Positions 1,593-54,789 of a stretch of 64,000 nucleotides of DNA are shown in pieces (the stretch's first letter is position 1; each line of letters starts with the position of its first letter). A model generated the notes under the pieces. That model made no database searches and was not told where the DNA came from. It saw only the letters and a list, made by a program, of their open reading frames with translations. Source of the DNA: Mytilus edulis (lineage: Eukaryota); NCBI RefSeq assembly GCF_963676685.1, contig NC_092351.1:32426001-32490000 (forward strand), written 5' to 3'. A program made the position numbers and the translations under genes.

Positions 1593-1777
1593 GTAAGCAT
1601 ACTAGTTTTGTTAGTATTGATATTGTATTAAATAAACATTTGTAAACATATACAAAGTTTACTTGGCGCATTTAAAGTATTATTGTATGCTCTATTTGGG
1701 AGTATTTGGAAGTTAAAATCGGAAAAAACCAGTTCGACCGTCCTTCAAGACGTTCGGTTCTGAAATTACGTGCCATC

Positions 1778-1801
1778 GTTGTTGTTGTTGTTGTTGTTGT
1801 T
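1778..1801. repeat. (GTT)8 microsatellite
   Basis: Directly visible. Confidence 0.9.
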
Positions 1802-2350
1802 CTGTATCTTTCCTCCACTGTCTGGAGAACTGAGGAGTTGAGTATGGAAATAATTTCCGTCATTGAAAGTCTGCCTGGCAAAATTTAATTGTATTTCGTA
1901 TCAGATACGATAAATATTTTTTTATACACTGAAACACTGTGTGATACACATTCCCTTGACGCTATCAGCAATTTAACAACAGATTTTTATTTTTTTTACA
2001 CGTCAAGAGCTTTTCCTTCCAATTCAACATTAAAAGGGTGCGGGGATTACTTCAGTTTTCGGTTAAAATGGGTACCGAAGTGCAGTTGGAATGTATTATT
2101 AATGCATAAAATGTTTACCTCACTCGTAAATGAGAGGGGGTCTGAGCACGGAAACACCATAATGCAGGTGCGGATCTATGATTTAATGTTAGTGGAAGGG
2201 TGTGCAAAAATATTGTTCTGCGGAGCGGAGCATGTTGCGAAATATATTTTGGGTAAAGGATTAGCAAATTAGCAAAAACAAATTACGTGTCGTCATCATT
2301 TCCGCTTTGTCTGTAAGTATTATGGTCTGCATAGCAAAAAGTATACCGTA

Positions 2351-2590
2351 CACCATTTGCGAGTATGGTCTCGAGGAAACGATGATAGTTCGTCGGAAGG
2401 GGACGATAAATGGCTGACCCGTGTTAAGAGGGAGCCATATCTCTTGCACGTTAAAGACACCCTTGTAGATTTCGAAAAAGAGCAGGCTAATGCCGCTACA
2501 AGGCAGCACTCGCACCCGCAAAGTGGAAAGGGATTAATATAAGTTGCAAAACTTGTTTCCCAATCCACTATAAATAAATCTGTTTAAACT
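2351..2590 (+). mobile_element. 5'-truncated SINE (Deu/Nin-domain-like) with 12-bp TSD
   Basis: AAGTATACCGTA at 2339-2350 and 2591-2602; core CTTGCACGTTAAAGACACCC; AT-rich tail. Family assignment from recall. Confidence 0.7.
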
Positions 2591-2959
2591 AAGTATACCG
2601 TAAAGGATAGTGGATTACTTCGGGTTTCAGTTAAAAATGGGTAAAAAAGGAAGTGAAGCTGGAATATGACTCCAATTCATATATTAATGCATACATTTTT
2701 AATACAACTCATATATGGGGGTTGTTCTGAGCACGAAAACACCTGAAATCAGATGCGGATTGATCTTACACTGAAACACTTTGGGATATACATTCCATTG
2801 ACGCTCTCAGCTATTTAACAACAGAATTTTAAAAGGTCGAGAGATCTTCCTTCCGGGGAACCGCAACGAGAATACATGAAAAGGGTGAGGGATAAATTTG
2901 GTTTTCGGTTAAAAATGGGTACAGAAGTTCGGCTTGAAAGTAACACCCGCCCCCACACC

Positions 2960-5900
2960 ACCCCAATTCTTATTAATGCATAACATTTTCAGCCCACTCA
3001 TGTAAAGGGGTGGTTCTGAACACAGAAACACTTGAAATCAGGTGCGGATCCAGAATTTGAGGGGGGTGCAAAAAATTCGTTCCACCGAGTGGAGCGTGGT
3101 GCGAAATCCTTTTGGGTAAAAATGCCTTCCACCTAAACTATATAACTTCAAATTATGAACCAAAATATATTTCGCAAGTATTTTTTAGTAAAGCATTATT
3201 CTTGTCAAGTGAATAATCGACTCCATGGCAATAAATCACGCTTACTTCTGATACGGATGAGGAAACATAATCACAGGTAACACCATATCATCCTTCAATG
3301 GAATGGCTTTCTACTTGATGACATTGTGTGATATGAAAAACACAATGAGTTTAAAAGCAATCGTGTAAATTACAGGAAGTTTTATATCTTTACCTCTGTT
3401 TCATAATTGACTTGGCATGTAAAAGTTTGTAATGTTTTAGTTTTGAGTGTGTTGTACCACGTTATTTGTTGGTTTCATCGTAATTTCATGCTCTAGTCCT
3501 ATTTCTTGTGCAATTTAAGGTTAAAATTCTCATCCACATAATTCACGTTTTATTGGTGTATGAATAGACTACCGTTAACAGACATTCATGATTGGGGATC
3601 CTTTACCAACTATATAGAAAAATATAGATACCTAAATAAGATTTTATAAGATTTTTTAATTGGATCTAAAACTTGTATGGGAATGATTCATTATTGCGGT
3701 ACTTATACTATTGCAAGTAGGGAATATTAATGAAATATGATGCTTACGTCTTCTCTCGAACGATTATTTCTTTAAACTTGTTTCCTGAAGTATCCATCTA
3801 AAAATTGGCTTCTCCATGTTTTACAGATCTAATTAAAAAACAGATTCGGCCAGACTGTCGAATTAACGAACTTTAACACACCCTCAAAAAACATAAATCT
3901 TTATTCTAGCTTTGTTGTTCAAGAATCAATAAAAAATGAAAATATCATGTTTTCGGGTTGAATGAGTTTACTCTATAGAGTAAACATACCACATTGCGTT
4001 TTTTTCAGATTATATTTTATTTTTGACGCTTCTCCATAACGTGATGTGGCTTTTTCTCATACATGTACAGCACTATTTTTTTTTAAATACTGACGGAGTC
4101 ATTAAAATTTGCAGCTGTCTGTGACCTATTTTTAATGGACGATTAACTGTGGTAATGGCATGCATGATGCCAGTGCGAGCTACATGCATACATCTAATAG
4201 ACATTGTGTCCTTGCATGCAACTGCAGTCTAAAACATTAAAGGCGTAGTTATAATCTCAAAGAAAGAGTGACCCCTCTCCCACCCCAATTCATATTATTG
4301 CATAACATTCTCAGCCCACTCGTGTAAAGAGGTGGTTCTGAGCACAGAAACACTTGAAATCAGGTGCGGATCCAGAATTTGAGAGGGGGTGCAAAAAATT
4401 TGTTCCACCGAGAAAAGCGTGGTGCGAAATTCTATTGGGTAAAAACGCCTTACACCTAAACTATTATATCTTCATATTATGAACCAAAATATATTTCGCA
4501 AGTATTTTTAGTAAAGTATTATTCTTGTCAAGTGAATAATCGACCCCATGGCAATAAATCACACCTTCTTCTGATACGGATGAGAAAACATAATTACAGA
4601 AAACACCATATCATCCTTCAATGGAATGGCTTTCTACTTGATGACATAGTGTGATATAAAAAAATACAACGAGTTTTAAAGCAATCGTGTAAATTACAGG
4701 ACGTATTATTTATTTATCTTTATTTATAATTGACTAGGCATGTAGACGTTTGTTCTGTTTTAGTTTTTAGTGTGTTATACCACGTTATTTGTTGGATTCA
4801 TCGTAATTTCATGCTCTAGTCTTATTGTTTATGTAATTTAAGGTTAAAATTCTCATCCACATAATTCACGTTTTATTGGTGTATGAATAGACTACCGTTA
4901 GCAGACATTCATGATTGGGGATGCTTTACCAACTATATAGAAAAATATAAATACATAAATAAGATTTTATAAGATTTTTTAATTGGATCTACAACTTGTA
5001 TGGGAATGATTCATTATTGCGGTACTTATACTATTGCAAGTAGGGAATATTAATGAAATATGATGCTTACGTCTTCTCTCGAACGATTATTTCTTTAAAG
5101 TTATTTCCTGAAGTATCCATCTAAAAATTGGCTTCTCCATGTTTTACAGATCTAATTAAAAAACAGATTCGACAAGACTGTCGAATTAATGAACTTTAAC
5201 ACACCCTCAAAAAGCATAAATCTTTATTCTAGCTTTGTTGTTCAAGAATCAATAAAAAATGAAAATATCATGTTTTCGGGTTGAATGAATTTACTCTTTA
5301 GAGTAAACATACCACATTGCGTTTTTTCAGATTATATTTTATTTTTGACGCTTCTCCAAAACGTGATGTGGCTTTTTCTCATACATGTACAGCACTATTT
5401 TTTTTTAAATACTGACGGAGTCATTAAAATTTGCAGCTGTCTGTGACCTATTTTTAATGGACGATTAACTGTGGTAATGGCATGCATGATGCCAGTGCGA
5501 GCTACATGCATACATCTAATAGACATTGTGTCCTTGCATGCAACTGCAGTCTAAAACATTAAAGGCGTAGTTATAATCTCAAAGAAAGAGTGATCCCTCT
5601 CCCACCCCAATTCATATTAATGCATAACATTCTCAGCCCACTCGTGTAAAGAGGTGGTTCTGAGCACAGAAACACTTGAAATCAGGTGCGGATCCAGAAT
5701 TTGAGAGGGGGTGCAAAAAATTTGTTCCACCGAGAAAAGCGTGGTGCGAAATTCTATTGGGTAAAATCGCCTTACACCTAAACTATATATCTTCATATTA
5801 TGAACCAAAATATATTTCGCAAGTATTTTTAGTAAAGTATTATTCTTGTCAAGTAAATAATCGACCCCATGGCAATAAATCACACCTTCTTCTGATACGG

Positions 5901-7602
5901 ATGAGAAACCATAATTACAGAAAACACCATATCATCCTTCAATGGAATGGCTTTCTACTTGATGACATAGTGTGATATAAAAAAATACAACGAGTTTTAA
6001 AGCAATCGTGTAAATTACAGGACGTATTATTTATTTATCTTTATTTATAATTGACTAGGCATGTAGACGTTTGTTCTGTTTTAGTTTTTAGTGTGTTGTA
6101 CCACGTTATTTGTTGGATTCATCGTAATTTCATGCTCTAGTCTTATTGTTTATGTAATTTAAGGTTAAAATTCCCATCCACATAATTCACGTTTTATTGG
6201 TGTAGGAATAGACTGCCGTTAACAGACATTCATGATTGAGGATGCTTTACCAACTATATAGAAAAATATAAATACATGAATAAGATTTTATAAGATTTTT
6301 TAATTGGATCTACAACTTCATGTATGGGAATGATTCATTATTGCGGTACTTATACTATTGCAAGTAGGGAATATTAATGAAATATGATGCTTACGTCTGC
6401 TCTCGAACGATTATTTCTTTAAAGTTGTTTCCTGAAGTATCCATCTTAATATTGGCTTCTCCATGTTTTACAGATCTAATTAAAAAACAGATTCGACAAG
6501 ACTGTCGAATTAACGAACTTTAACACACCCTCAAAAAACATAAATCTTTATTCTAGCTTTGTTGTTCATGAATCAATAAAAAATGAAAATATCATGTTTT
6601 CGGGTTGAATTACATGTACATTGTAGTTTACTCTTAGAGTAAACATACCACGTTGTGTTTATTCAGATTATATTTTATTTCTGACGCTTCTCCATAATGT
6701 AATGTATAAAATTGAGAATAGAAATTGGGGAATTTTAATGAAATATGATGCTTACGTCTGCTCTCGAACGATTATTTCTTTAAAGTTGTTTCCTGAAGTA
6801 TCCATCTAAAAATTGGCGTGGCTTTTTCTCATACAGCACTATTTTTTTAAATACTGACGGAGTCATTAAAAAGGAGTAGGTTCAGTAAGACCCCTTTTTG
6901 GCCCCAAAATATAGCAGTTTTACAAAATTGTTAAAATGTAAACCTTTAGTTATTTTTTGGACAGTAGAATGCTTCTGCTACATAAATATGGGCTGTTTTT
7001 GACAATACAATGCACATATATAGGGTACTAGCACCATTAAGTCATGCTAAATTACTGAAATCCTCATAATTCTAGCATTTTAGTTAAATTTTAGACGGTT
7101 TTCGTGTAAAACGAAAGTGGCAGCATTCGTGTTCATTCTTAATATTGAAATGTAAGTTGGACTTTATGATAATACATATTATATATAAAGGTTGAGGATG
7201 AACACGGATGCGGCCACTTTCATTTTTACCAAAAACCACCTGAAAAGTGACATTTTTCGGCATATTAGGTAGATTTTTCATATTTGAGCTTGAATCGGAT
7301 CGTTTTTAATGACCAAATCTGTTAAAATCTTTCACATAAACTACTTAATTCAAATAAAATAGACACTTAAGTGTTTAAAAAGTGGTCAAAATCTTTCGTC
7401 AGATGAACCTGAAATTTGAGGCCAAAATCGGTCCTTACCGCACCTACTAGCAGCTGTCCGTAACATATTTTTAATGGACGATAAACTATGGCAATGGCAT
7501 GCATGATACTAGTGCGTGCTACATGCATACATCTTATAGACATTGTATCCTTGCATGCAACTGCAGTCTAAAACATTAAAGGCGTAGTTATAATCTCAAA
7601 GA
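2960..7602. repeat. Tandem triplication of a ~1.32-kb unit
   Basis: Near-identical units starting near 2961, 4283 and 5605; third copy interrupted by insertions. Confidence 0.93.
6875..7448. mobile_element. Non-autonomous element with ~35-bp imperfect TIRs
   Basis: AGTAGGTTCAGTAAGACCCC... / ...GGTCCTTACCGCACCTACT; absent from the other two triplication units. Confidence 0.8.
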
Positions 7603-7815
7603 GTACAACATATATACTTGAAAAATTGAAATGACTGCAAAAATGAGAATAAAAAGTTGTATTATATGATAAATCATCACCGTTTGGTGTCCATCCATCG
7701 ATGGTATACAACCCAAAAGGGTTGTTATTCATAAAAGATAAATTATGTGTATGTCTATTTCACAGCTATATTTTTTACATATATATGTACCTCTTTTCTC
7801 CGAAAAATGCCTTAA

Positions 7816-8506
7816 AGGGGCACTAGCTACGATATATATAAAGAAATAAAGTATGATTTTTTTTAGATCAAATTGAATCATTAATCAAATTGGAATAATG
7901 AAATAATAATTTGCTTTTAGCAATCAATTTCCTTTAATTTTGTTGAAATAAGCGATTAAACATAATTTTTGACTGATTCACTTGCAAGTGAAAACGTCAT
8001 CATCATTCTAACCGGTATTCATGTGAACTTCAAGTTAACCCCTAGCTAGAGATTGACAACGCATGCATTGTACGTGTACAGGTTATTTAAAGAAAAAGAA
8101 TGTCAACAATGAAAGTGAAACTACGGTAAACCATTTGATTACTAATTCGATGCACATAAAATCATTCTTATATGGTTAAAAAGAATGAGAAACATCTATT
8201 TTTAATCTATAAAATAAAATCAAACAGACCTATAAAAATACAATTGCACGTGTTGGTTTAATCTATTCGTATCTTTTTTTTTTGTTTACATCGCTTATAT
8301 GGTCATCTGAGGTCAAATCGATAGTTAATTAGATGGCGTCTGGACTAAAATACACACGAAACGAACCTATATATAATCTACCCCATGCTCTGTAAACTGT
8401 TTATTTTAGACTTTTGATAGTTTGGATAAATGTTTTACATTGTTATAAACCAAATATGAGAATTTGAGTCAAATCGGTTACAATGAATTTGATAGCTAGT
8501 GCCCCT
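7816..8506. mobile_element. Kolobok-type MITE
   Basis: TTAA on both sides; TIR AGGGGCACTAGCTA / TAGCTAGTGCCCCT; purine-purine terminus. Confidence 0.85.
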
Positions 8507-11500
8507 TTAACATATGTAAATATATTTCAATTCTTTCGAGGAACGCACATTATATTCAACTTTCAGAATCGTCGGCCTTTTGCCATCAAATTGTGTCACG
8601 CGGCATTTTCTTTAACTACATGAATATAATTTTAAATAAGAACTATCTTTTAAAAAAGATATCCGACGTATTTAAATTTGAGTATATGTTTAAAACTATC
8701 ATTTCGATAACCTTCAGAAGCACAAAGATACCATTTAAATAACAGTAAACGTTTTCTCTGTTTGTGTTCAGTATTCTCGGTCCTCGTATCTTTCTGTTTA
8801 CATTCACCAAAACCCCGCGGAAATCTCACATGCGTAGGTGCGTTTTAACAGTCATGTAAGTTTACATTAAAAATTATATAATTGTCCCGAATAAACAGCT
8901 GTCACGGATGCAAAGAGCTATTAGAGAAACAATTATTTTAATAAAAATATAAATCTGTGTAAGATCTAGTTCAAATATTTATAGCTTTTCACTTGCTTTC
9001 CATTACGATATAATTAACGAGACGGTTTTTTTCAAACACAACCAAATCACCCACCATGACAGCATTTTGTCCAATCACAGAAAGGATCTTCGAGCATGCG
9101 TATTCTGTTGCCATAGTGAAGCGTTCTTAAGTTCAAAGGGCACAAACCGAAACTAATACCGACTACGTCGGAAAAACTGCCACAGATTCATGGTTTCTTT
9201 TAAAATCTATAATGCTAAAATCTGAATGCGATAAACATCTTTTTTTATTTTAATTTTATATAGTTTACAGAGCTGGTCTAAAAATCCCCTCATCGTATGT
9301 ATTTGATCAGCAAGGCAATTGTTTTAATTTTTGGAATCCTTGCTTTTTCAAAGCAAGAACATTCCATACCAAACTAATTTTTTTAATTTCTCTCCCGCTT
9401 TTGGGTTTTTATAATTTTTAGTTGTATTGAGATCAGACTTGACATCCTTGTTTTCATTATTCCTGAATTCTTCCAGGTCGCTACGTAGTTGACATTTTTA
9501 ACAAACTTGGTAGTTCTTATGGACAATAATTATTTCAGTACAGTCCTTGCTCTTAAACAATCTTTTATCTTTGTAATTATGCACTTCCCTCTTTTATCCT
9601 CCATTTCTGATCTCTTAATAATGCAATTAAGCAACTTGTCGTTGCGAAGAGATTGTGTAGAAACAAAATACTTTTCCAGTGTCGTTCCTCGACATTTCTA
9701 AGACTATTAAGTTTCTTTAATAATCCGTGGGATCATTCTGACAAAACGTCAGACTTTTCCTAATAAAACCTAATACATCTTCTATAAACCTGATGTTGTC
9801 TTTAATTAAGGTGTCCCTTTCTTAAAAGATATCATGCTGAAACCCTATTATTTCAGACCAAATCGATATGTCACTTAAATGTTTAGGTAAATACAATAAT
9901 ATGAAGCAGAACTAAAGCTTTCTAAAAACCATTCTATTGTGAAGTCTTCCATTTACTGTAATTTGAACGAGATTAATTCGTCCGGGAAAATGTCACAATA
10001 TATTGGTTCTGTAATGACTTCCACATAAGACGATTAAACAAAATAAATGTGTAAAGAGGAGAACAAACATTCTAAAGATTTAGTTTTATTTCAGTATAAT
10101 AAAAAGAAAATTTGCTGCGGAAATTGTGATAATCATTCTCGAAGAGATCATGCGGTGTGAAACCATTCTCAATGCTAAGTTAACTTCAGATAAGTGAGAT
10201 AACGACTGCTAACAAATTGAAAATTAACGACTTCAAACTTGTCATTTGTTTCCTCCATGTTAAAGTTTTACGGTTTAATTGTATAGTTGTTGTATAGCAA
10301 ACCATAAAATTTCTTGTATTTCCTTTTCTGGTTAAAAGCAGGAAATTCCAAATTCATTGAAGCTGTACATGATTCTATTCCCAAAGGACAAGATTAAAAT
10401 AGATATTAAACATCCTACAGAGATTAAAATGAAACACATTTGAAAAGTACGAATTGTAATAGGTTATCGAGCATTTAGTGTTTTATTTGCTTTCAATGTT
10501 TGAGCAAAGCTATCTTGGCTTTTATAACCTCTAATCAAAATTATTTCCTATTATAAACTTTAAGCCCTTCAACTAAATCAATGTAATAGTAATCAATTGA
10601 AGCGTTGCTTAAATTGCACGTATAATAACTTCGACTCAATCAGAGTAATTGCCCAAAACGAACAATGTAACATTAAGTTGACTAATATAGTGCAGCGCTA
10701 TTTTTTTTGGCAAGTACAGATACACATTGTGATTGCCTTTTCGTTGCTTAAGGAAATCAGTATGCAACTATCAAAATGACAAAATTCATTATTAAATACT
10801 ACAATTATAAACTAGGAAATTACTCCCTTTAAGTCTGTCAATCGATCAAAATGTATAAAAAGTCATATGATCTTAATTCAAAACCCATAAAAAAAAATAT
10901 TGGCATTTATTTAGTATTTCAAAATAGCTATATATATATATAGACACCTAATTTATTAGAAAATATATATACCGATAGTTATTAGATTTTCAATCACGAT
11001 TTATTCTTTTGTTGAATTCAATACCATCTTTCTCAGTGCAGTATATTCGTTTGTTTAAAAAAAAACAATCAACGAGTTCAATACGTCGAAACCCTTTCTT
11101 TAATTCGTCTTTCAAATCATTATTATAATCATGAAAAAGTATCAAGGGAATATAAATGTTTTATAAAACTCTCTGGTTTAGATAAATCTGTTTGTTCGGT
11201 TTTATTTGTCTAGGTATACTAGTATTAAAGTTATAAAATAGCATATTATAGTAATTCACGTCATCTGTACTATTTATGTCTGACTTATATACATGTACAA
11301 CATTAACGTACGTGCTAAGCTATTTCGATACCATTTTTGTGGCATTTAGTTATAAAAAATGCTCATTTGTCTACTGACTTCCACAATAGGAACCAGACCT
11401 GGCCTATTTAAATATAAAATAAGAAATCCCGGAATAATTACCCGAAGAGACACCTACATGTATCCAGCTGCTGAGACTATAGGACATGGATATAGGCAAC

Positions 11501-13049
11501 ACATTTACTACACTAAATGCACATGTTTCAATCTCAGTTCACGTTTCTGATTACACCTACTTTTAACTAATACAGTTATAGTATTCTCATTTGGAAAAGG
11601 TCATTATCAAAAGTCAAATCTCGCGGAATTGTATTAGGACATAAAGACTTATTTCATTGCTTATGAGATACATGACTTTTTTATATGTTGTTATTGGCTT
11701 TGAACTAACTGTCATTACATGTATATGCTAGTAATCTCAGATCTATACTAAGTGTCTTCGTTTTGTTGGGATGATGTATAAATAACTTGTCACGTCTAAT
11801 CTGTGTTTTGGTAACTTGTCTGTCTGCTTTGTATCGACCTGATGATTTAAGTCCTCTTTTATTGTTTGTTTGTTCACTTTCCCTGGTATTGAGAGCGTTG
11901 GGCGTTCACAAACATGTCTACTCCCGACAAATTATGTATGTGCCTGTCCCAAGTCGGGGGCCTCTTATTCAATGGTTGTCGTATGTTCATGTCTCATTTC
12001 TTTCTTTCGTAAATTGGTGTGGCATATATTAGGTCGTTAGTTTTATCAATCGAATTAATTGAGTCATGTTTTTTTTTTATGTCGGTGCCTTTTATAGCCA
12101 ATTGTACTCTATGTTTTCTTTTAATTGTTGAAGATCGCAAGGTTATCTATAATTTCATCTATAAACATCCTTTGAACTCTGATGAATAGTTGTCTCATTA
12201 GTAATCATTAAACATTTTTTTCTTCTTTGTGTATCCTGAAAAGTTTAGGGATAAAGAAAAGTATTAATATGTGGAATTCTACCATGGCTAGCTTTAGTCT
12301 ATCTATTGCCTCAGAGTTGGCGTCAGTTTGACTGTGTGTGGTGTATAAATATGTAGATGTGTCCGGTCAGATGGGTAGTTAAATTCTATTCTCATGCAGC
12401 ATATGATCAGCGGTCTCGACAATTAAAAACTCTCAAGACTTGTAACAATGATGGGTTTCTATGTGATTTGTGGCAAGGCAAACGTTTTGCCTTATTGAAT
12501 ATACATTTATTTTACAATGCCATTCTGAATGTCCACCCTTTACAACTATATAGAACTAACCTGTTAGATAGAGTGTTAAGTGTTTCTTGGCCGAAAAGTA
12601 TACGTAAAATTGTTGCCATGCACTTGATGCTTAGCAAATATTAATGGAATCACAAAAGTTATGCAGCCGATACAGGATTCCGGAATAACAGAACGGCATG
12701 TTATTTGGTATAAAAGTATAACACAGTGGGGACAGTCGTGTCTCCAAAATAATCATCATCATCAGGTAAACATAAAACTATATCTGGAGAATGTCGAATG
12801 CATTAACAGGTATTCGGCCCATAATTAGCCAATATACAACAAGCAAAATAATTTACATTTTTATCAAGGATTGTAAGCGAAAGGGGGGTGGGGGGGGGGG
12901 TCTAAAAGTTCTTACTATGAAAATAAAACATTGCAATAGCTTTTGATAATAGATTACCTTAATAAGATGTCGTCTAAACTTTTCGGACTTTAAGTTCTTC
13001 AAGGCTCTTCAACTTCGAACTTTATTTGATCTTTTAACTTTTTATTCGA

Positions 13050-13093
13050 GCGTCACTGATGAGTCTTATAAAGACGAAGACCGCATATGATGT
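13050..13093 (+). ncRNA. Degenerate type I hammerhead ribozyme relic
   Basis: GCGTCA-CTGATGA-GTCT(TATAA)AGAC-GAAG; GAAA core and stem III mutated. Confidence 0.6.
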
Positions 13094-13509
13094 ACACAAT
13101 TGTAATCCTAGTACATTGTATTTATGATATTATGCGTTTATTTCATAATATCATAACATTTTTTATATTTTAAAATAATGATTAAATGATTTACATTTAT
13201 CACTTCAGAAGCTGAAGTTTAATAAATAAATGGCCTACTAAAAACATATTTTTCCTCATCCTCTGTTCATGAAACACACCAAGATCGTAATACAACACTG
13301 ACATACAAAAATTACAAACAGCGGTACAAGTTGTAGGTAAAATCATAACAATATCATATACTGGTCTTCATGTCAAAAGCAAGACTTAGTACTTAAGACT
13401 AAATCAAACCACAACTGCTATAGACAAATCCTATTTCCATTTTATTTGCTAGAAACGCATTTCAAATATTTTAATTATAAACTATTATTATGCTGTTATA
13501 TGTTTAAAG

Positions 13510-13715: not shown

Positions 13716-14655
13716 GTATGTAGCTATAAATAAAGTGTGTGACCAAAATTTCTTCTTTTTTTTCTTTCTGAACAATAGCTGATTTATTTTAGAGATTTAA
13801 GATTGTTATTGTGTCTTGCATTCAACCTTTGATTGAACGAGCTTCGAGTATTTTATCTGATCATCATAAGTCAAAAACATCCATTAATGAACAATATCTG
13901 TAATGATAACAGTGTGCTCTAATACTCTGGTTTTTTTTTGTGTGTATTGATTAATATGGGCATACATTCTTTTGGGTCTTGAGTTGAAATGAATACTTCA
14001 TTAAGACATCGTCGTTGCATCAAAGGGGATAAATCACTAAATTTAATGTACATTTGACAGCACCATTATCAAAAAAAGAAGCAAAATAATGCATTTTCTT
14101 GAACATATCTTGACGTTAAATAATTCACGTGTGTAAGGTGGAAGAAACTTTCAAATAAAAAAAGAGAAGTCATGAATACATATAACAAGATGCGATATAA
14201 GGTCAATGAGACAACTGCCAACCCAAGTCAGAATTTGTAAAAAGTAAACCATTTTAGTGTAATTAAACTTGGTGTCCACTTTGTCTTATGCTTGATGACA
14301 CGATACAAGAAGATTTGTTAATTATTAGACGTTAAGGAAATGGCTAAATGGACAGCAAATATTAGTATTTGGGGAACATAATTATATAGCAGCCAAGAGA
14401 ACACGAGATGCGATGCATGGGTTTATGTGTGGAATAAATACCTTATAACTGTACATGGTAAATACATTTAAATACAACCAAAGAATGACCTTAACTAGAT
14501 ATAAGAAGATGTGGTATGAATGACAATGAGACAACTCTCCATACAAGTCACAATTTGTAAAAGCAAACCATTATTATATTTCTTAAGTTGATATGTAAAA
14601 ATGATAATTTGAATATGTTTACTTCTCTTTATATCACTGTTGTTGTTTCTTGTAG

Positions 14656-14709
14656 ATACGAGAAGTTGGAATGAATAAACAAAATTATTCATACATTTTA
14701 GCAACGCAG
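14656..14709 (+). CDS. iGluR 54-nt exon (IREVGMNKQNYSYILATQ)
   Basis: ttgtag acceptor, CAG|gtaaga donor, phase 0/0; equivalent of GxxxxGYHYIIA. Absent from ORF track. Confidence 0.9.
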
Positions 14710-15383
14710 GTAAGAGGCAGTAAAAACACCAGTCATAGAACTACGTTTAATAAACATGTGATAAACAAACACTATATTGTATTATAATACATGCATGTTG
14801 GAAATACATTATTTCTCAAAGAAATTGATACACTGATGCACGATGAACGTTTTGACAAATAAAAATCAGGACTTGTAACATAAACGCTCATAATACATTT
14901 TATGACACTTTTGATCTATAAAGAACATGATTTAATGCAATGCTTACAATGCCAAGCGGCACACTCATTTCATTATCATAATACATCCAATAAAAACACA
15001 TTACAATTACCTAAAAATATTATAAGGATTGCTTGTTGTTTGGTTGCCTTACGTTCAGTTGCAAATATTTCATGTATGAAGCTTAGGGTAGGTACTGTAT
15101 TAGTTGTCTACAAAAATGAACAGCATGATATTTCGAATGTCGCTGAAAAATGGGGTATACTATATAGGGACAGAAATTTGGCCTTGCAATGGACTCCTCA
15201 AAATGATTGTTGCAAGAGTTCTTGCCGTACGAAATGCGTGGTACACTCTCTACAAGACAGGGTTTTACGTCCTCAGTCTGACTGGACGTGGTTATGTATT
15301 TATACATACCGCACACAAAAACACATAGTTTTACATGTGGATGACATAAACCAACCAATATAGAAAAATTTAAATCGTAATTT

Positions 15384-15758
15384 AAAATTGGTACCGTTAA
15401 TTTTATTACTACCACGGGGTCGATGCCTCTGCTGGTGGACTATTAGTCCCCGAGGATATCACCAGCCCAGTAGCCAGTACTTCGGTACTGGCATGAAAAT
15501 ACGGATTTTATGTGTTATTAAAATTTGCTGTTACAAAATGATAGAAATTATTATAAATTAAGGAATGTATCTCCCTCATGCAAAGCTCTGATTCCTTTCA
15601 CGGATTTGGCTATACTTTTTGGACCTTTTTGATTATAGCTCTTCATCTTTTATATAAGCTTTGGATTTCAATTTTTTTGGCCACGAGCATCACTGAAGAG
15701 ACATGTATTGTCGAAATGCGCATCTGGTGCAAGAAAATTGGTACCGTTAATTTTATTA
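15384..15758 (+). mobile_element. Retrozyme-like / Penelope-associated 350-nt unit with terminal redundancy
   Basis: 25-nt direct repeat AAAATTGGTACCGTTAATTTTATTA at 15384 and 15734 enclosing a hammerhead. Confidence 0.75.
15687..15730 (+). ncRNA. Minimal type I hammerhead ribozyme, core intact
   Basis: GCATCA-CTGAAGA-GACA(TGTAT)TGTC-GAAA-TGCGCA-TC-TGGTGC; predicted cut after 15724. Confidence 0.85.
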
Positions 15759-17182
15759 AAGAGAAGAAAACAATTGCTTAATTCTACAAAATTGCCTTAA
15801 TTTTTAAACAATCTTTTGTTTGTTCAGTCTTGTTTTAGACAAGAAAAGAAAAAGAAAAACACGATAAGCATCACAAGCGTTTTTGTTTGTTCAGGTTGTC
15901 AAACACTCTTTAGAGTAATTATACATTCTTTTTCTTTAAACCTGAATATCTTATTTGTAATAGAAAGTGAAGCAAGATTTTATAAAAAAAAAACGAATTA
16001 CTTTAAACCGTGCGTGTGGCAATCATTTGATAATGTTAATTTGTATTTAAACCATTGTGGTGACGTCAGCCTATTCATTTACCGTGGATTCTTTTTCTAG
16101 AATCAACGCTTTCTAAATCAGTCGCTGAAATTGACTTACCAGATTATATTCTATTGTTTCCTTTGTGTGCCTAATATCATTAAGTTTGAATTGAGTAATT
16201 TCCTGATTTCTGTTTACTAATGGAATTATTTTTAAAAACTTACCTTTAATTTTTGTAATTTCTATATGCCTTCACTGGGATTCGAACCCGGCCATAAATT
16301 TTGTAACTTGTTACTGACATTAACATATCGACGAAACCTCTGGGCTACCAATAGGTTACGATTTTAAAGTCTATTTCATATATATAAATGAATATATGAT
16401 ACACATCGGTAAAACGGACACACATGGCTTCTACCTTTATATATACATAATAGGTAATCGTATAGTTTGAGTTGGTACTCACGAGGTTTCGTAGATAAAT
16501 GAGTTAAAGCTAAGGACTTGTCTGTTTAGGTTCGAATCCCTGAATTCTCTGTGTTGTTCCAATAGTCTAGATTTCCAGTTTTTGTTCTTGTTTTGAATGT
16601 TATTGTGGATATTTGTGTAAAAAAAAGCGATTATGGTCGTTTATTATCGGATAATGGTTGGCTATTCCATATGTTTCGAACAAAACAAAAATGGATTGCA
16701 TAATATTGGTCCATTTTTGTTTTAAAAATTAATATTATATGATTTCATCTGTTTTACTACATAATTTTACAAATTTTAATTCGCAAATTCCTATGCTAGA
16801 AAATCGTGATATCTCTTGAATTAGGCTTATTGTAGAAATTTCGGAAACATACTTATTATATGCACTATATATAATGTTTTTGACGGGTTGTTGTCCCTTT
16901 GACACATTCTCCATTTCAATTAAGATCAATTCAAATAGAAATAAGTTCCAATATGTCTTATTTTGTAAAAACAGAAAACATTTGGGTGCCTGATGATATG
17001 AAGATGTTTAAGGGCAGACGTGTTGTGTTATAATATATTTGTATTCTTTTAACCATTTAATTGTGATATCTAATTTATTGTAATGGATCGTTTGGCACAA
17101 TCTCATGGTTAATTAAACTCACTTACAATACCTTCTAATTAAGAATAGGCGTTAATTTTCAAAAGACATTATCACAATAGTT

Positions 17183-17297
17183 TAAGTGATAGATACAATG
17201 GATAAGCGTTGATTCATGAAAAACAAACAATTCGCCCTGCGGGCTCATGGTTTCTTTTTCAAGAATCAACGCTTATCCATGGTATCTATATCACTTA
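17183..17297. repeat. Fold-back palindrome with GC-rich mini-hairpin core
   Basis: Arms TAAGTGATAGATACAATGGATAAGCGTTGATTC / GAATCAACGCTTATCCATGGTATCTATATCACTTA; core GCCC-TGC-GGGC. Confidence 0.85.
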
Positions 17298-17523
17298 CCA
17301 AACAATATGATATAATCAATTCCTTCATTTATCTTAACCATTAGGATAATTTAGGTCTTCAATTAAAATGTTGTTGGTAATCTAAAAATGATTATTTTAC
17401 ACAAAGTCGTTTGAATTAAAAATCCTTTATTGACGAATAATTAAATTCTGCAATATTTACATGTATAATGAGTCGGTCGCGTATATTAGATTAAATGTTT
17501 TGCTAAATATTGGTCCCGTCTTA

Positions 17524-17760
17524 GGCCAAATAAAATAGAATTTGTGGTTCAAGTTACATAAAATAAAGTTAAGGTATGAAGGTAGTTTTTTATATGTTTT
17601 TTTTTACATTGAGTCTATGAGAGCTACGTTCTGACTTCAGCAGTGCTGAATTAAACATGACAAACAACTGTTAAGGGTAGGCTCAATATTATTGAGACTA
17701 ATTAAAAAATAGGGCAGATAGGGTAACTGGAACCACACTGTCATGTATTTTTATTTGGTC
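17524..17760. mobile_element. MITE with TTA TSD (Zator/Harbinger-like)
   Basis: TTA|GGCCAAATAAAA...TTTTATTTGGTC|TTA; imperfect TIR extends to TGTGGTTC/GAACCACA. Confidence 0.7.
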
Positions 17761-18175
17761 TTATACAAATGAAATTGTAAGTTTCCCCATCCCTTGTCCT
17801 TGGATACGTATGGATAGTTGTCCCACATCAATCCTTACCACATTCCCCGTTATTATTAATAATATGACCAAAATTTAAAGGAGATGGGAGGGGGAGAAGT
17901 AAACGTCAAGACGACAGCAACCAATCGACAAAGGTAACCATGCAATATCTTAAGATCATCAAACAATCTGCAACAATGGAGACAGCTGCTTGTGAAATAT
18001 ATTTAGATCTAAAGCGTCGGATCTTATATCAGTTGTGAATAAATTAAAAGAAAAAAATATCTGACATTAAAACCATAATGGTTTTCTAATGAAAAAAAAA
18101 CATTTTATAAATTTCGTGCATCCGAAACGCTTTGCTGAATTGCACATGAAATATATCATCTGTGATATTTATTAG

Positions 18176-18337
18176 GACATTTTGAGTCTTCCTGTAGAAA
18201 AGTTTCGCCATGGTGGTGTAAAGATCACAGGATTTCAGCTGGTAGATTATTCGACATACAAAGTACACCGGTTTATAGGGCAATGGAAAACACTATCAAC
18301 ATCTTTGTGGCCCGGAGCAGGGGGCAACAGAATAAGT
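18176..18337 (+). CDS. iGluR exon, ATD (DILSLPVEKFRHGGVKITGFQLVD...NRIS)
   Basis: attag acceptor, AGT|gtaagt donor; GGxxITGFQLVD motif. Confidence 0.93.
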
Positions 18338-19485
18338 GTAAGTAACATTGATAAAAATTCTCTGAGACTGTAGTGGAGATACAAAAAGAGGGGCGAAAGA
18401 TACCAGAGGGACAGTCACACTCATATATCGAAAATAAACTGACAACGACATGGCAAAAAAGAAAAAAGAAAAACAGACAAATAATTGTACACAAGAAACA
18501 ACATAGAAAACTAAATACAGAGCAACACGAAACAAAAACTAGGGGTGATCTCAGGTGTTCTGGAAAGGTAAGCAGATTTCTCTCCACATGTGGCACCTGT
18601 CGTGTTGCTCATGTTATTACAAAGCCGGTAAATAGTCTTATTCGGTAGGTCACATTCATGAAAAGATATTGGTTTTATACTAAACAAATAATTCCGAACG
18701 ATCACATCAAATATTCCCCTAAACCAATTCATAAAAATTAAATACGCGTTCGAAGGAGATAAGATAGAACATATTAATTGAAGAGGTCGTCTAGAATAAT
18801 TATCGACTCCTAGGAGTCGATATTAAGAATTGAACGATGGACAGTTAGTGCGTGAATTTTTCTTGCTACCTGATTGGAAGATTTTACGAGACGTGAATAA
18901 TCAAAGTTTATTGATTGGTTAGGACAATCCAAACCTAGTAAATGTCCTTCAATCCCGTAGAATATCGGATTTGTCCTCTCTATTTTAGCAATTAGATTTT
19001 GCCTGGTCATTAATCATGCATATTTATGATATTGATACACAGGTAACTTTTATTTATAAATAGTCGAATCTTCTGGAGTTATACTACTTCATAACGTGTG
19101 ACCTCACGTGTGTGGTCAAATTTGTTGATTGATGCACGTGGCTATTCTAGTAAAGCAATTAATCTACAAAGCGAGAGCACTTTCCATTTTCATCAGCTAA
19201 GAGTCGACTAGCCCTTTTTGAAAGGCTAATGCTTGTTTTATATGTTGAAGTCGAAAGCAGCATTACAAACAATAAACTGATTTGCTGTTGGACACACACA
19301 TAAACATGTACTGCTAAAGTTAAAAAAAAACACGTTAATTCCGACCTATTTTTAAAACAAATGAAAACAGCAATATATTTACTTTGCCATTTATTCACAT
19401 ACATGTATATTTTTTTAATAATTTTTAACAAGGTTTATCATCTGACATCAACACTTAACTTTAGATAGTTTTACAAATACAATAG

Positions 19486-36236: not shown

Positions 36237-38947
36237 GCCTAGTATCTACGATAATTTTTTTATTATTACTTAGGCAGGTTGGCATGAAAATGACGAACTT
36301 GGAGTACCTAACCTGGATCATCACGTGTGTCAATCAATAGATAATTCTGTGCACAGAAACAGACACGAGCCTGTACAACGATTATCTGCCAAGAAAAAGT
36401 CATGAAGCAAGAGGTCACGTGATAGTATGTGAGTGAATACATACACACTTTAAACACACAGTCTGATATGGTTTGAGGATTATGGTAGTCTGGTGGTGCT
36501 AAAGCATATGAGTTGTGTTCATTGTATACAAATGTATGACATTTCCCATTTAACAAGATGTTGAATTTTTTAGATGATACGAACATATACAATAAATTTC
36601 TTTGTTATGCTGCATGTATATATCTATGAAGCTGCAGTAAAAAAATATTTTTGAAGTACTGCAGCTGATGTCTTCGTGTAAAAATTAAGAACAAAGATAA
36701 TTGTTGTCTCGACTAGCTTTTAGAAGATTTTTCATAATACACTCTTATATTTATATTGATTTTTTTTTAAAGGTGCTGTTTTTGTAGCGATTTTGATAGA
36801 TTAATTAGGAGATAACTATGGTGTATTTTAAGCTTGTCCTTCGTAAAACGTAGATTTTACTGTCGTTAATTGAGTTTAGCCTGCGATGCGTTGCGGAGCT
36901 AGGTAAACGGATATTTGCGACGAAGGCCAAGCTTAAAATACAATACAATACAGTTATCTCCATTATAATGCAGAATATTAAAATAAATACCATTTAACAA
37001 CTATTTTGGCGTAAAATGACATAAATGAAAAAGTCCGCGAAAGTGCATTATCTTAAGCAACTAAACAATTTGACGTTATATTTATACTCACCATGTAAAA
37101 CATACATTCTAGACGTGTGTATACCTTTCTTACGCTTCAGAATGACAAAAAGAACATTTTGGGGTTCAACATGTGACTTTCATGTTTATTTTGTGAGAAT
37201 TTACATTTGAAATCAAAATGGTAGCTTTCTTAGCTACGGGCTGGTAGAACGTGGAATTCACACCTTTAAAATATTTGTCAATCGTTACGTCTAATGAAAA
37301 TTATCGTTACAAACGAATTGCTTTAAAATTTATATTTTACTTGTACTAAACATTTTTTCAAGGTATAAACACGTCTTTGTAAAATATTTATGTATCATTT
37401 GGTTTATTAAGTATTAATTCGTTATAAGTTTTGGAATCTCAGCATATATTTTGGTCTCCAGCATTACTGAAAATACAGGATTGTATTGTCGAAATGCGCA
37501 TCTGGCGCAACCAACATTGTTACAGTAAATGTTATTATGAACACAAGTGCTAGTTATGATATAAGGCAGTGTCTAGTTTATTTGCTTGCACTAAGTGTAA
37601 ATTAATGTTTATAAACTATAATTTTGCAATAATTTTGATTTTATTAAATTCTATATACAGTACATTTTTGAACTCGTTATTCTGACTCAGAATATCGAAA
37701 AAAAAGATATACATGTATGTAGCATTTATACTTCCAGCAAAACATAAACTCTTAATTAAAAATTTGTCTAATCAAATACACTAAATAACACCATTGATAT
37801 ACATTTTATATTTCAGAAATCATTTAATCTCAATATGCACATTGAGAAAAAACAAATGTTATTAATAGGATTAAAAAATAAAAGAAGACGTTGTGATAAA
37901 TGTTAATGAGACAACAAGCCAACGAGAAGTGCTGTAAAATTGTGAACGAAAATCAGCAAACGGCTGAATTGAGTGACAAGAAAATGAAAAAGAACTACCT
38001 ACTTCAGTCATTTTATATTACAATGTAGATACCTAACATTACAATTCGAACAACTATACTAGTTTAAGAGCGGTACAGAAAATTAAAATGGATTTATACA
38101 TGTAACGTTAGCACAAGCGCCTCACACTCAAAGCGCTAGCAGAACCAAAGCGTGTACAACCCTATATATACATAAAGAAGCATTCGAGATGTGGTATGAA
38201 TGCCAATAAGACAACTCTCTATCCAAGCTACTGGTATCATAGATTTCTTTTTTTAAATAAATTATTGGAAATTAGGAAAATGATTGACTGGGTTTACCTC
38301 CTGTAAATATAGCATACTTGCTACCATTTTTCTGTGTTTAGTAATACACTGTAGTGTTGTATTCATGGGTCCTAATGGTTACACTTAAGTATAATTTGAT
38401 TGTAGCAAAACGTGTTTTACGCTGTAGAAAATGTTGAGTAGATAAAGACCTTTGGTTAGAAAGTCAGAGGCCGGATCGAAGGTCATAGAAGTGTTTGTGA
38501 GATATTCTCGTGTTCATTAAGGGGAACCTTTAGGGAATACCCATATACAGGACATATTGTATTCGCCCAGGAGTATAGAAAAAAGTAAAATCACAAAAAT
38601 ACTGAACTTCGAAATTCAAAACGGAGAGTCCCTTATCAAATGGCAAAATCCAACACATCAAACGAATGAACAACAACTGTCATATTCCTGACTTGGTACA
38701 GGCATTTTCTTATGTAGAAAAATGATGGATTGACCCTGGTTTTATAGCTAGCTAAACCTCTCACTTGTATCACAGTGGCATCAAATTCCATTATATTGAC
38801 AACGATTCGTTAACAAAACAAACAGACATAATAGGTAGAAGTGACAAATGATAACCATTTGGGTTCGGTAAATGTTCTTATGTAAAAGACCAGTTTATAA
38901 ACATGCTAATGATATTTTAATACGGAGTGGCTATTCATCAGGCAAGA

Positions 38948-54087: not shown

Positions 54088-54789
54088 TTATTTATTATAG
54101 TACAATCTGAATATACAAATAAGTACATGTTTAAAAATACAAAAGAATCGGCCAGCCAAATAAACTTATGGTGCACTTTCTGATAATAAAAGGTCTATTC
54201 TAAATCATGAAACATATTTATGAAATCAAAATTTAAGTTTGTTACTTACATGAAAGAAAAATTGAACGCATTTAACATATGTTATAAGATATGACAATTG
54301 TTTGGTAGTTTATTTACACACTACATTTATGTTGATTGATTTTGCAACTGTTTTACTCTTCTTACTATTTAGGAGTTCTTTTAACTTATCCATTGATGAA
54401 AGGTCCGGGAATTCTTAGTCATGAAGCTCGAAGGAGCTTTTTACGAATATTGTTATGAAAATTTTTTCATGAAGTGGAGCTAATCTTCTACTTCGTCATT
54501 GTTACACATATTACATAGTCTTTGTTCAACAAGAATATTTCTGATACGCCTGTCACATCTGACTAGACACACTATATCTATGTGTATTGATATGAAAACT
54601 ATGTCTACTTCACTACTTGAGGGACTTTTGGAAAGATCTAAGCCGATTTTTTAAAAGATAGATGGCTTAGAGTTCATAAGCTCTGTACCGATGATATTTA
54701 TCATTTAATAGTGATTTTACTTGTTTAATTAAGTTTTTCAAAATTAATATTCCTTTATTTTGTATGTACTTTTATTTCTAGCAGTTATC

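Follow-up and report, generated by a model that had tools for sequence, protein, structure and literature searches.

A sense retrozyme copy in an intron of a glutamate receptor gene

The window, the whole stretch of 64 kb that was analysed, carries on its + strand a gene closely matching the protein 'glutamate receptor 2-like [Mytilus edulis]' (P0001), with 96-100% identity in 16 of the 17 exon blocks shown; the remaining block over-runs its exon. Exon mapping on either side of the element described here places it in the intron at 14710-18175 of this receptor (iGluR) gene, in the sense orientation, as the first-pass annotation had proposed. The element and its surroundings comprise the following features.

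14656..14709, + strand: upstream iGluR exon, amino acids 237-254 of P0001
15382..15386, + strand: left copy of a likely 5-nt target-site duplication, overlapping the first 3 nt of the 25-nt repeat
15384..15758, + strand: solo retrozyme insertion, 1.07 units of a 350-nt monomer, 5'-truncated and with the fixed 3' end
15384..15408, + strand: left copy of the 25-nt redundancy (exact repeat), start of the truncated unit
15409..15473, + strand: hairpin that on the circle immediately follows the fixed end; homologous to Naiad starts and a putative reverse transcriptase recognition signal
15687..15730, + strand: type I hammerhead ribozyme, identified by direct reading, descriptor scan, covariation, and exact genomic copies
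15725..15757, + strand: 33-nt segment between cut site and fixed 3' end, from end mapping of family loci
15734..15758, + strand: right copy of the 25-nt redundancy, up to the family's fixed 3' end (15757-15758)
15756..15760, + strand: right copy of the 5-nt target-site duplication, beginning with the last TT of the element
18176..18338, + strand: downstream iGluR exon, amino acids 255-308 of P0001, 2,451 nt past the cut site

Other repeats were observed in the window. An old dispersed repeat lies just upstream of the retrozyme copy (15127-15315; 71-76% identity to many genomic copies), and a MITE-like 49-nt inverted repeat with a 3-nt spacer (17189-17289) occupies the same intron. The long intron 1595-13508 of the same gene holds a decayed sense copy of a sister hammerhead family with a damaged core (13054-13140, + strand). 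Elsewhere we observed a DDE transposase fragment (PF13359; 44699-44893, + strand), an open frame of 855 codons that matched nothing in Pfam at 0.001 (54748-57315, + strand), and Naiad-type 3' ends at 38605 and 48553 (- strand).

We searched the assembly for a second copy of the left flank, which would mark an empty allele, and found none. In four DNA runs, no joint skipping the element was present among the 15 shown of 187, with junction contigs reaching less than 31 nt across. Contigs covered both junctions in runs X1 and X3, which carry two species labels, and the left junction in X9, each by less than 31 nt. The run that best holds the insertion may be the source sample.

The hammerhead is complete and its three stems covary

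Stem I of the hammerhead is formed by 15687-15692 paired with 15725-15730 (6 bp, including one G-U). The core consists of CUGAAGA (15693-15699) and GAAA (15713-15716), which enclose stem II (15700-15712; 4 bp with a 5-nt loop). Helix III is a palindrome at 15716-15723 containing UGCGCA (15717-15722), and the AUC cut triplet predicts cleavage between 15724 and 15725. A descriptor of the motif had a single match in the window, with both strands scanned, and no match in 60 shuffles. The complete type I core, the stems, and the AUC cut after 15724 reported at first pass were thus recovered by direct reading and by the descriptor scan.

Two-sided changes were found in 6 of the 13 hammerhead pairs and in all three stems, in a small and related set of six sequences from three families of this genome. 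Helix III was among the covarying stems. The annotation had compared it with the minimal hammerheads of Penelope-like elements (PLEs) and non-LTR retrozymes; the minimal PLE type does not apply, as helix III covaries. We likewise rejected a minimal PLE-type hammerhead within a pLTR: helix III is present and covarying, no coding element adjoins, and among 50 GIY-YIG loci no PLE end resembles the unit.

The proposed check against Rfam hammerhead models came out negative. No Rfam family matched the window at gathering scores, and the six weak matches to 15200-15900 at E<=10 did not include a hammerhead. Because the stems covary, we did not count this result against the fold. Helix III of the monomer has a loop of only 2 nt and cannot be scored by ViennaRNA, and the whole 350-nt unit was no more stable than shuffles (z -0.73). 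The palindromic stem III was verified and permits a double-hammerhead fold, as predicted for two co-folded 48-mers. The earlier suggestion that the ribozyme cleaves best as a dimer, or is completed in trans, describes an option only, as a published mussel clone cleaves as a single genomic repeat at about 0.1/min (PMC7229834, as given in the main text).

The element belongs to an abundant 350-nt retrozyme family

The 44-nt ribozyme has 2,834 exact matches in the genome (1,414 + 1,420), and the reversed control has 0. Searching with the 375-nt element gave 89 matches at 93-100% identity from the 40 of 950 candidates that were scored, many of them in 350-nt arrays. The family is scattered over all 14 large contigs, and its 350-nt spacing recurs in tandem arrays of up to 9 ribozymes. 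A retrozyme-type unit in a genome-wide 350-nt family, as first annotated, is therefore borne out by the arrays and the exact motifs. Two sister families have 17,114 and 704 exact motif matches; the mean spacing is about 480 kb for exact copies of the studied ribozyme and 66 kb for the three sampled families taken together. The window copy differs from the majority of 46 family units at 6 positions, none of them inside the hammerhead. We found no Pfam match in 5 of the 6 stop-to-stop frames of at least 50 aa overlapping the unit and no LTR-like ends in 90 loci. The region 14001-16000 is 32% GC. The size of the unit falls within the 150-450 bp of metazoan non-LTR retrozymes, and its low GC and lack of coding capacity agree with that class.

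The rarer sister family (L210-L239) has units near 546 nt and a ribozyme 88% like the studied one, and its ends are apparently not fixed at the same distance as in the 350-nt family. It was considered as the pLTR of a helper element and rejected, as 30 loci contained one frame of at least 200 codons.

RNA of the 350-nt family was present in four RNA runs. Small RNAs of 30-31 nt with a 5' U were found on both strands over window positions 15579-15722 in three runs of one study. An antisense small RNA at 15722-15692 spans the catalytic core, with 20 and 10 molecules in two of these three runs. Their size and first base resemble those of piRNAs, and the antisense 31-nt RNAs over the catalytic core may be a host counter-measure. 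Our literature search returned no publication connecting retrozymes and piRNAs.

Insertions share one fixed 3' end and have scattered 5' ends

To map the ends of the family, we used 60 of the 69 clusters among the first 100 matches listed on contig C1, in position order and with one omitted; three of the 60 loci had internal breaks and were joined by hand. All 60 loci stop at unit position 22-32, most often at 24-25 (36 loci), which is about 33 nt beyond the cut. The 5' ends are scattered, with lengths from 75 to 3,189 nt and 34 of the 60 sampled loci shorter than one unit. Loose contig ends cluster at 15757-15759, at the end of the window copy, in all four DNA runs.

Duplications of at least 5 nt flank 22 of 58 loci (the 60 minus two segmental duplicates), compared with a mean of 4.0 and a maximum of 11 in 300 permutations. 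In 19 of these 22 loci the duplication starts 2-3 nt inside the end of the element, as it does in the window copy. TT at the left junction alone was not significant (11 of 60 loci vs 7.8 in controls). One retrozyme locus (L009) has a flanking duplication of exceptional length, about 50 nt. The fixed end, the scattered 5' ends, the target duplications, and the dispersal are together the marks of target-primed reverse transcription.

The sequence at 15384-15408 is repeated exactly at 15734-15758, at a spacing of 350 nt. The first-pass annotation took this repeat as the mark of a copied circular monomer. The exact repeat is confirmed and that interpretation is not: any truncation slightly beyond one unit leaves such a repeat, so it is no designed terminal repeat but a by-product of the fixed 3' end and a chance 5' truncation at 1.07 units. 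It is compatible with copying from a circle or a multimer. Starting at the fixed point, reverse transcription of a cleaved linear monomer would give just 33 nt, so longer insertions would need a sealed or uncut junction, that is, a circle or an uncut multimer.

Seven loci (L134, L138, L139, L141, L142, L150, and L161) are insertions of just the 33-nt stretch between cut site and fixed end, which a cleaved linear monomer would give. The excess of 33-nt insertions over neighbouring positions is weak. Among loci with a changed base before the cut, about 10 of 40 begin at the cut, compared with 0 of 13 one base later and about 6 of 25 one base earlier, in counts sorted by eye after script flags of 11, 2, and 8. 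Starts at the cut were not retained as evidence of in vivo cleavage, as the signal is weak and microhomology can explain it.

A hairpin beside the fixed end is shared with Naiad elements

Directly 3' of the fixed end on the circle lies the hairpin at 15409-15473. A Naiad locus with an N-terminal GIY-YIG (L111) has a start that aligns with window positions 15396-15500, scoring 66 compared with a maximum of 37 in 1,000 shuffles, and this type of start is conserved in 30 of 30 fetched copies. In the outer stems of the hairpin 94% of cells are paired, and 3 of 12 pairs are changed on both sides, in effect a single contrast of retrozyme with Naiad. In the window copy two private changes (15416 and 15456) break hairpin pairs. 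A sister retrozyme family has the same fixed end and hairpin as the 350-nt family, and among the PLE families compared only Naiad shares this hairpin at the fixed end.

The six long Naiad loci have the same end geometry. In each, a partial copy precedes the element, the hairpin begins where the 3' end of that copy leaves off, and the element itself ends at the same point. Three of the six retain an open frame of 1,053 codons that encodes a reverse transcriptase (RT) together with N-terminal GIY-YIG, CxC, and DKA motifs, and no hammerhead core was found in the six. This matches the published account of Naiads, in which canonical hammerheads are lacking and CxC and DKA are diagnostic (PMC8557442, as described there). 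The retrozyme thus shares terminal sequence and end geometry with an autonomous Naiad family, as a non-autonomous partner would. As the fixed end beside the hairpin is shared with intact Naiads, Naiad is likely the copying enzyme; the hairpin would be the binding signal of the reverse transcriptase and the fixed end the point at which reverse transcription starts.

We therefore propose that retrozymes are chimeric RNA parasites that combine a hammerhead with a Naiad start hairpin, a model to which we give about even odds. Tandem copies would be transcribed, self-cleaved, and ligated into circles, a step taken from the literature. The Naiad protein would bind the hairpin on the circle, nick AT-rich DNA, and prime on a TT at the nick, the nicked end pairing with the UU just 5' of the hairpin. 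Reverse transcription would begin there, before the hairpin and 33 nt past the ribozyme cut, and proceed upstream across the ligated cut site and on around the circle, so that a fresh array would be the record of one circle. Copying would halt at a random point, in the window copy 1.07 turns on. Having a single ribozyme and a hairpin with broken pairs, the window copy is predicted to be a dead end.

Several observations weigh against this model. The Naiad link is a prediction from sequence, built on one 65-nt homology and the shared end geometry. Naiads often prefer (TA)n targets, according to the text of PMC8557442, and the sampled retrozyme flanks are mostly not (TA)n. The start site of a PLE of the anole is described as not homologous to its target (PMC11167929, as reported there), and here the last TT of the element overlaps the target duplication. 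Four other PLE families with intact frames also exist in the genome. We found no Naiad-retrozyme link in the literature searched; the supplements of PMC7229834 and of preprint 10.64898/2026.07.22.740005 may show end structures.

Alternative readings: other helpers, or spread at the DNA level

One alternative is that the helper is another Penelope-like family, bearing a hammerhead and a C-terminal endonuclease, or that there are several helpers, which would leave the status of the locus as a retrozyme and a passenger unchanged. Young families of this kind do exist; they encode RT and GIY-YIG in open frames of 784, 792, 911, and 959 codons and bear hammerhead-like motifs and tails. In addition, retrozymes of Xenopus are described as related to PLE pLTRs (preprint 10.64898/2026.07.22.740005, as stated in its text), and in one locus of our set a retrozyme and the tail of the 959-codon family lie end to end. 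Against this, in 50 fetched GIY-YIG loci the unit has no BLASTN similarity to these families' own sequence, and the matches that occur are inserted hammerhead repeats; the survey scored 150 of 858 GIY-YIG candidates. The 3' ends of these families mostly run into (TA)n, and the hairpin at the fixed end is one that the retrozyme shares with Naiad only. PLEs with a C-terminal endonuclease were rejected as the helper, having no sequence in common with the unit, and we consider this alternative unlikely.

At the locus with the joined sequences (L078:966-1262, oriented), a truncated retrozyme directly adjoins the 31-nt tail of the 959-codon PLE and runs into a TA repeat. This junction is either a template switch or a later insertion. 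Separately, loci L240, L247, L248, and L250 represent young PLE families with intact RT and GIY-YIG frames, some with hammerhead-like motifs of altered core in their 3' repeats.

The family could also be a satellite spread at the DNA level, by unequal crossing-over or extrachromosomal DNA circles, with the ribozyme and hairpin as relics. Heterogeneous, periodic arrays (L008, L023, and L030) do suggest DNA-level duplication after insertion. This origin is nevertheless highly improbable for the family as a whole, given that insertions share a single fixed end and vary at the other, that target duplications exceed the permutations by a wide margin, and that the copies are spread over all 14 large contigs.

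The array units bear on the template as well. The units differ by 0-1 nt within 5 of the 23 multi-unit loci (or 5 of 8 if only the position-ordered sample is counted), compared with a median of 14.5 between loci. Near-identical units are expected from one circle and fit the proposed model, and local tandem amplification could also be their source. In 16 of the 23 loci the units differ by more than 4 nt, some with a period of 2 or 3. A single fresh monomer circle does not fit these arrays, which need multimeric templates, age, or later recombination. Eight RNA reads span the head-to-tail joint from 15733 to 15384, a joint that tandem DNA copies would give too.

Possible cleavage of the receptor pre-mRNA

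The first-pass annotation further proposed that the receptor pre-mRNA carries a self-cleavage site. In its strongest form, the insertion would measurably lower or tune receptor output, the ribozyme cutting the nascent intron before splicing, in cis or as a double hammerhead formed with abundant retrozyme RNA. The motif is intact, sense, and 2,451 nt before the next exon. At 0.1/min, a rate measured at 37 C in vitro, and an assumed elongation of 3.5-0.5 kb/min, 7-39% of transcripts would be cut before that exon. Two 48-nt copies co-fold as a double hammerhead (-30.3 vs 2 x -9.3 kcal/mol), which in this model makes completion in trans physically possible, and helix III is still palindromic in the sister families. 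Retrozyme RNA is described as abundant (PMC7229834, main text), and the insertion is apparently present in runs under two species labels.

The remaining evidence points the other way. The motif is one of 2,834 identical ones, and a 35-kb gene is expected to hold by chance 0.07 exact copies of the 350-nt family and 0.53 of the three families. The predicted pairing probability of stem I is 0.58-0.85 in the 48-mer and 0.00 in every context of at least 121 nt, where a hairpin over the cut site displaces it. No molecule ends at 15724/15725, the RNA ends anticipated at first pass, in four RNA runs sampled at 12-19% of each read; these runs have 0 reads on three receptor exons and so carry no information on the gene itself. 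Reads carry the family letter rather than that of this copy at 15416 (30 of 30) and 15672 (187 of 188; run X24). Slow intronic ribozymes have been described as without effect on splicing (Fong 2009, as cited in PMC10919898).

Self-cleavage of the receptor pre-mRNA is thus possible and unsupported, and would be slow, if folding occurs at all; an effect on receptor output is improbable. A co-opted regulatory ribozyme like that of CPEB3 is improbable, as such ribozymes are single or low in copy number and conserved at the orthologous site, and this motif has 2,834 identical copies.

We conclude that the locus is a solo, 5'-truncated copy of an abundant 350-nt mussel hammerhead retrozyme, likely written by Naiad and likely a near-neutral passenger in the receptor gene, with a probability of roughly 0.6 for this reading as a whole. 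The locus itself is an ordinary representative of an already described mussel retrozyme type; the interest lies in the anatomy of the family and the Naiad link. The helper enzyme of animal retrozymes has been left open since 2020, and the hairpin beside the fixed end now offers a named protein and an RNA signal of 65 nt with which to ask the question in vitro. The Naiad reading, if true, would identify both the helper of an animal retrozyme and its cis signal, and would supply a minimal element by which any small circular RNA could be written into DNA. If instead the regulatory reading were true, thousands of sense intronic copies would tax splicing genome-wide.

Comparison with known systems

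The closest described system is the non-LTR retrozyme of Mytilus galloprovincialis (Cervera and de la Pena 2020, PMC7229834), to which we liken the studied family on the basis of its published description. According to the main text of that article, M. galloprovincialis has about 5,000 type I hammerheads in two families with repeats of 350-390 bp. These are AT-rich and encode no protein, with target duplications of more than 4 bp and a ribozyme predicted to be blocked in some mussel circles. Tandem copies are described there as transcribed, self-cleaving, and ligated by RtcB into abundant circles, and PLEs are named merely as a strong candidate helper. The window copy differs from these tandem retrozymes in being a solo 1.07-mer with a single ribozyme. 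The words 'tail' and 'truncat' are absent from the main text, where we also did not find the fixed 3' end, the TT-overlapping duplications, or the Naiad hairpin; its supplement may bear on them.

The Naiad clade of PLEs (Craig et al. 2021, PMC8557442) is, as described there, similar in its 5' truncation, partial tandems, and fixed 3' end, and is abundant in Mytilus. Naiads differ in being autonomous, about 4 kb long, without canonical hammerheads, and often targeted to (TA)n, whereas the retrozyme is non-coding and has only about 65 nt in common with them. The Poseidon PLE of the green anole (Frangieh et al. 2024, PMC11167929) is reported to have an internal start of reverse transcription that needs sequence 3' of it, a template RNA uncut by its hammerhead, and AT-rich target DNA cut at ATT. 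In contrast to the retrozyme, it is autonomous, and its start is the one reported not to be homologous to the target.

The vertebrate non-LTR retrozymes (Li et al., preprint 10.64898/2026.07.22.740005) are alike in occurring as dispersed solo monomers, about 43% of the Xenopus copies being intronic, and a PLE helper is proposed for them. They differ in their homology to the pLTRs of hammerhead-bearing PLEs, and the text of the preprint, as far as it was available to us, has no mollusc, Naiad link, or end analysis. Finally, the CPEB3 ribozyme (PMC10919898) and the intronic hammerheads of amniotes (cited in PMC7761336) are similarly described as sense self-cleaving motifs in introns of neuronal genes. 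Those ribozymes are single conserved loci with matched kinetics, whereas the window copy is one of thousands of identical mobile copies.
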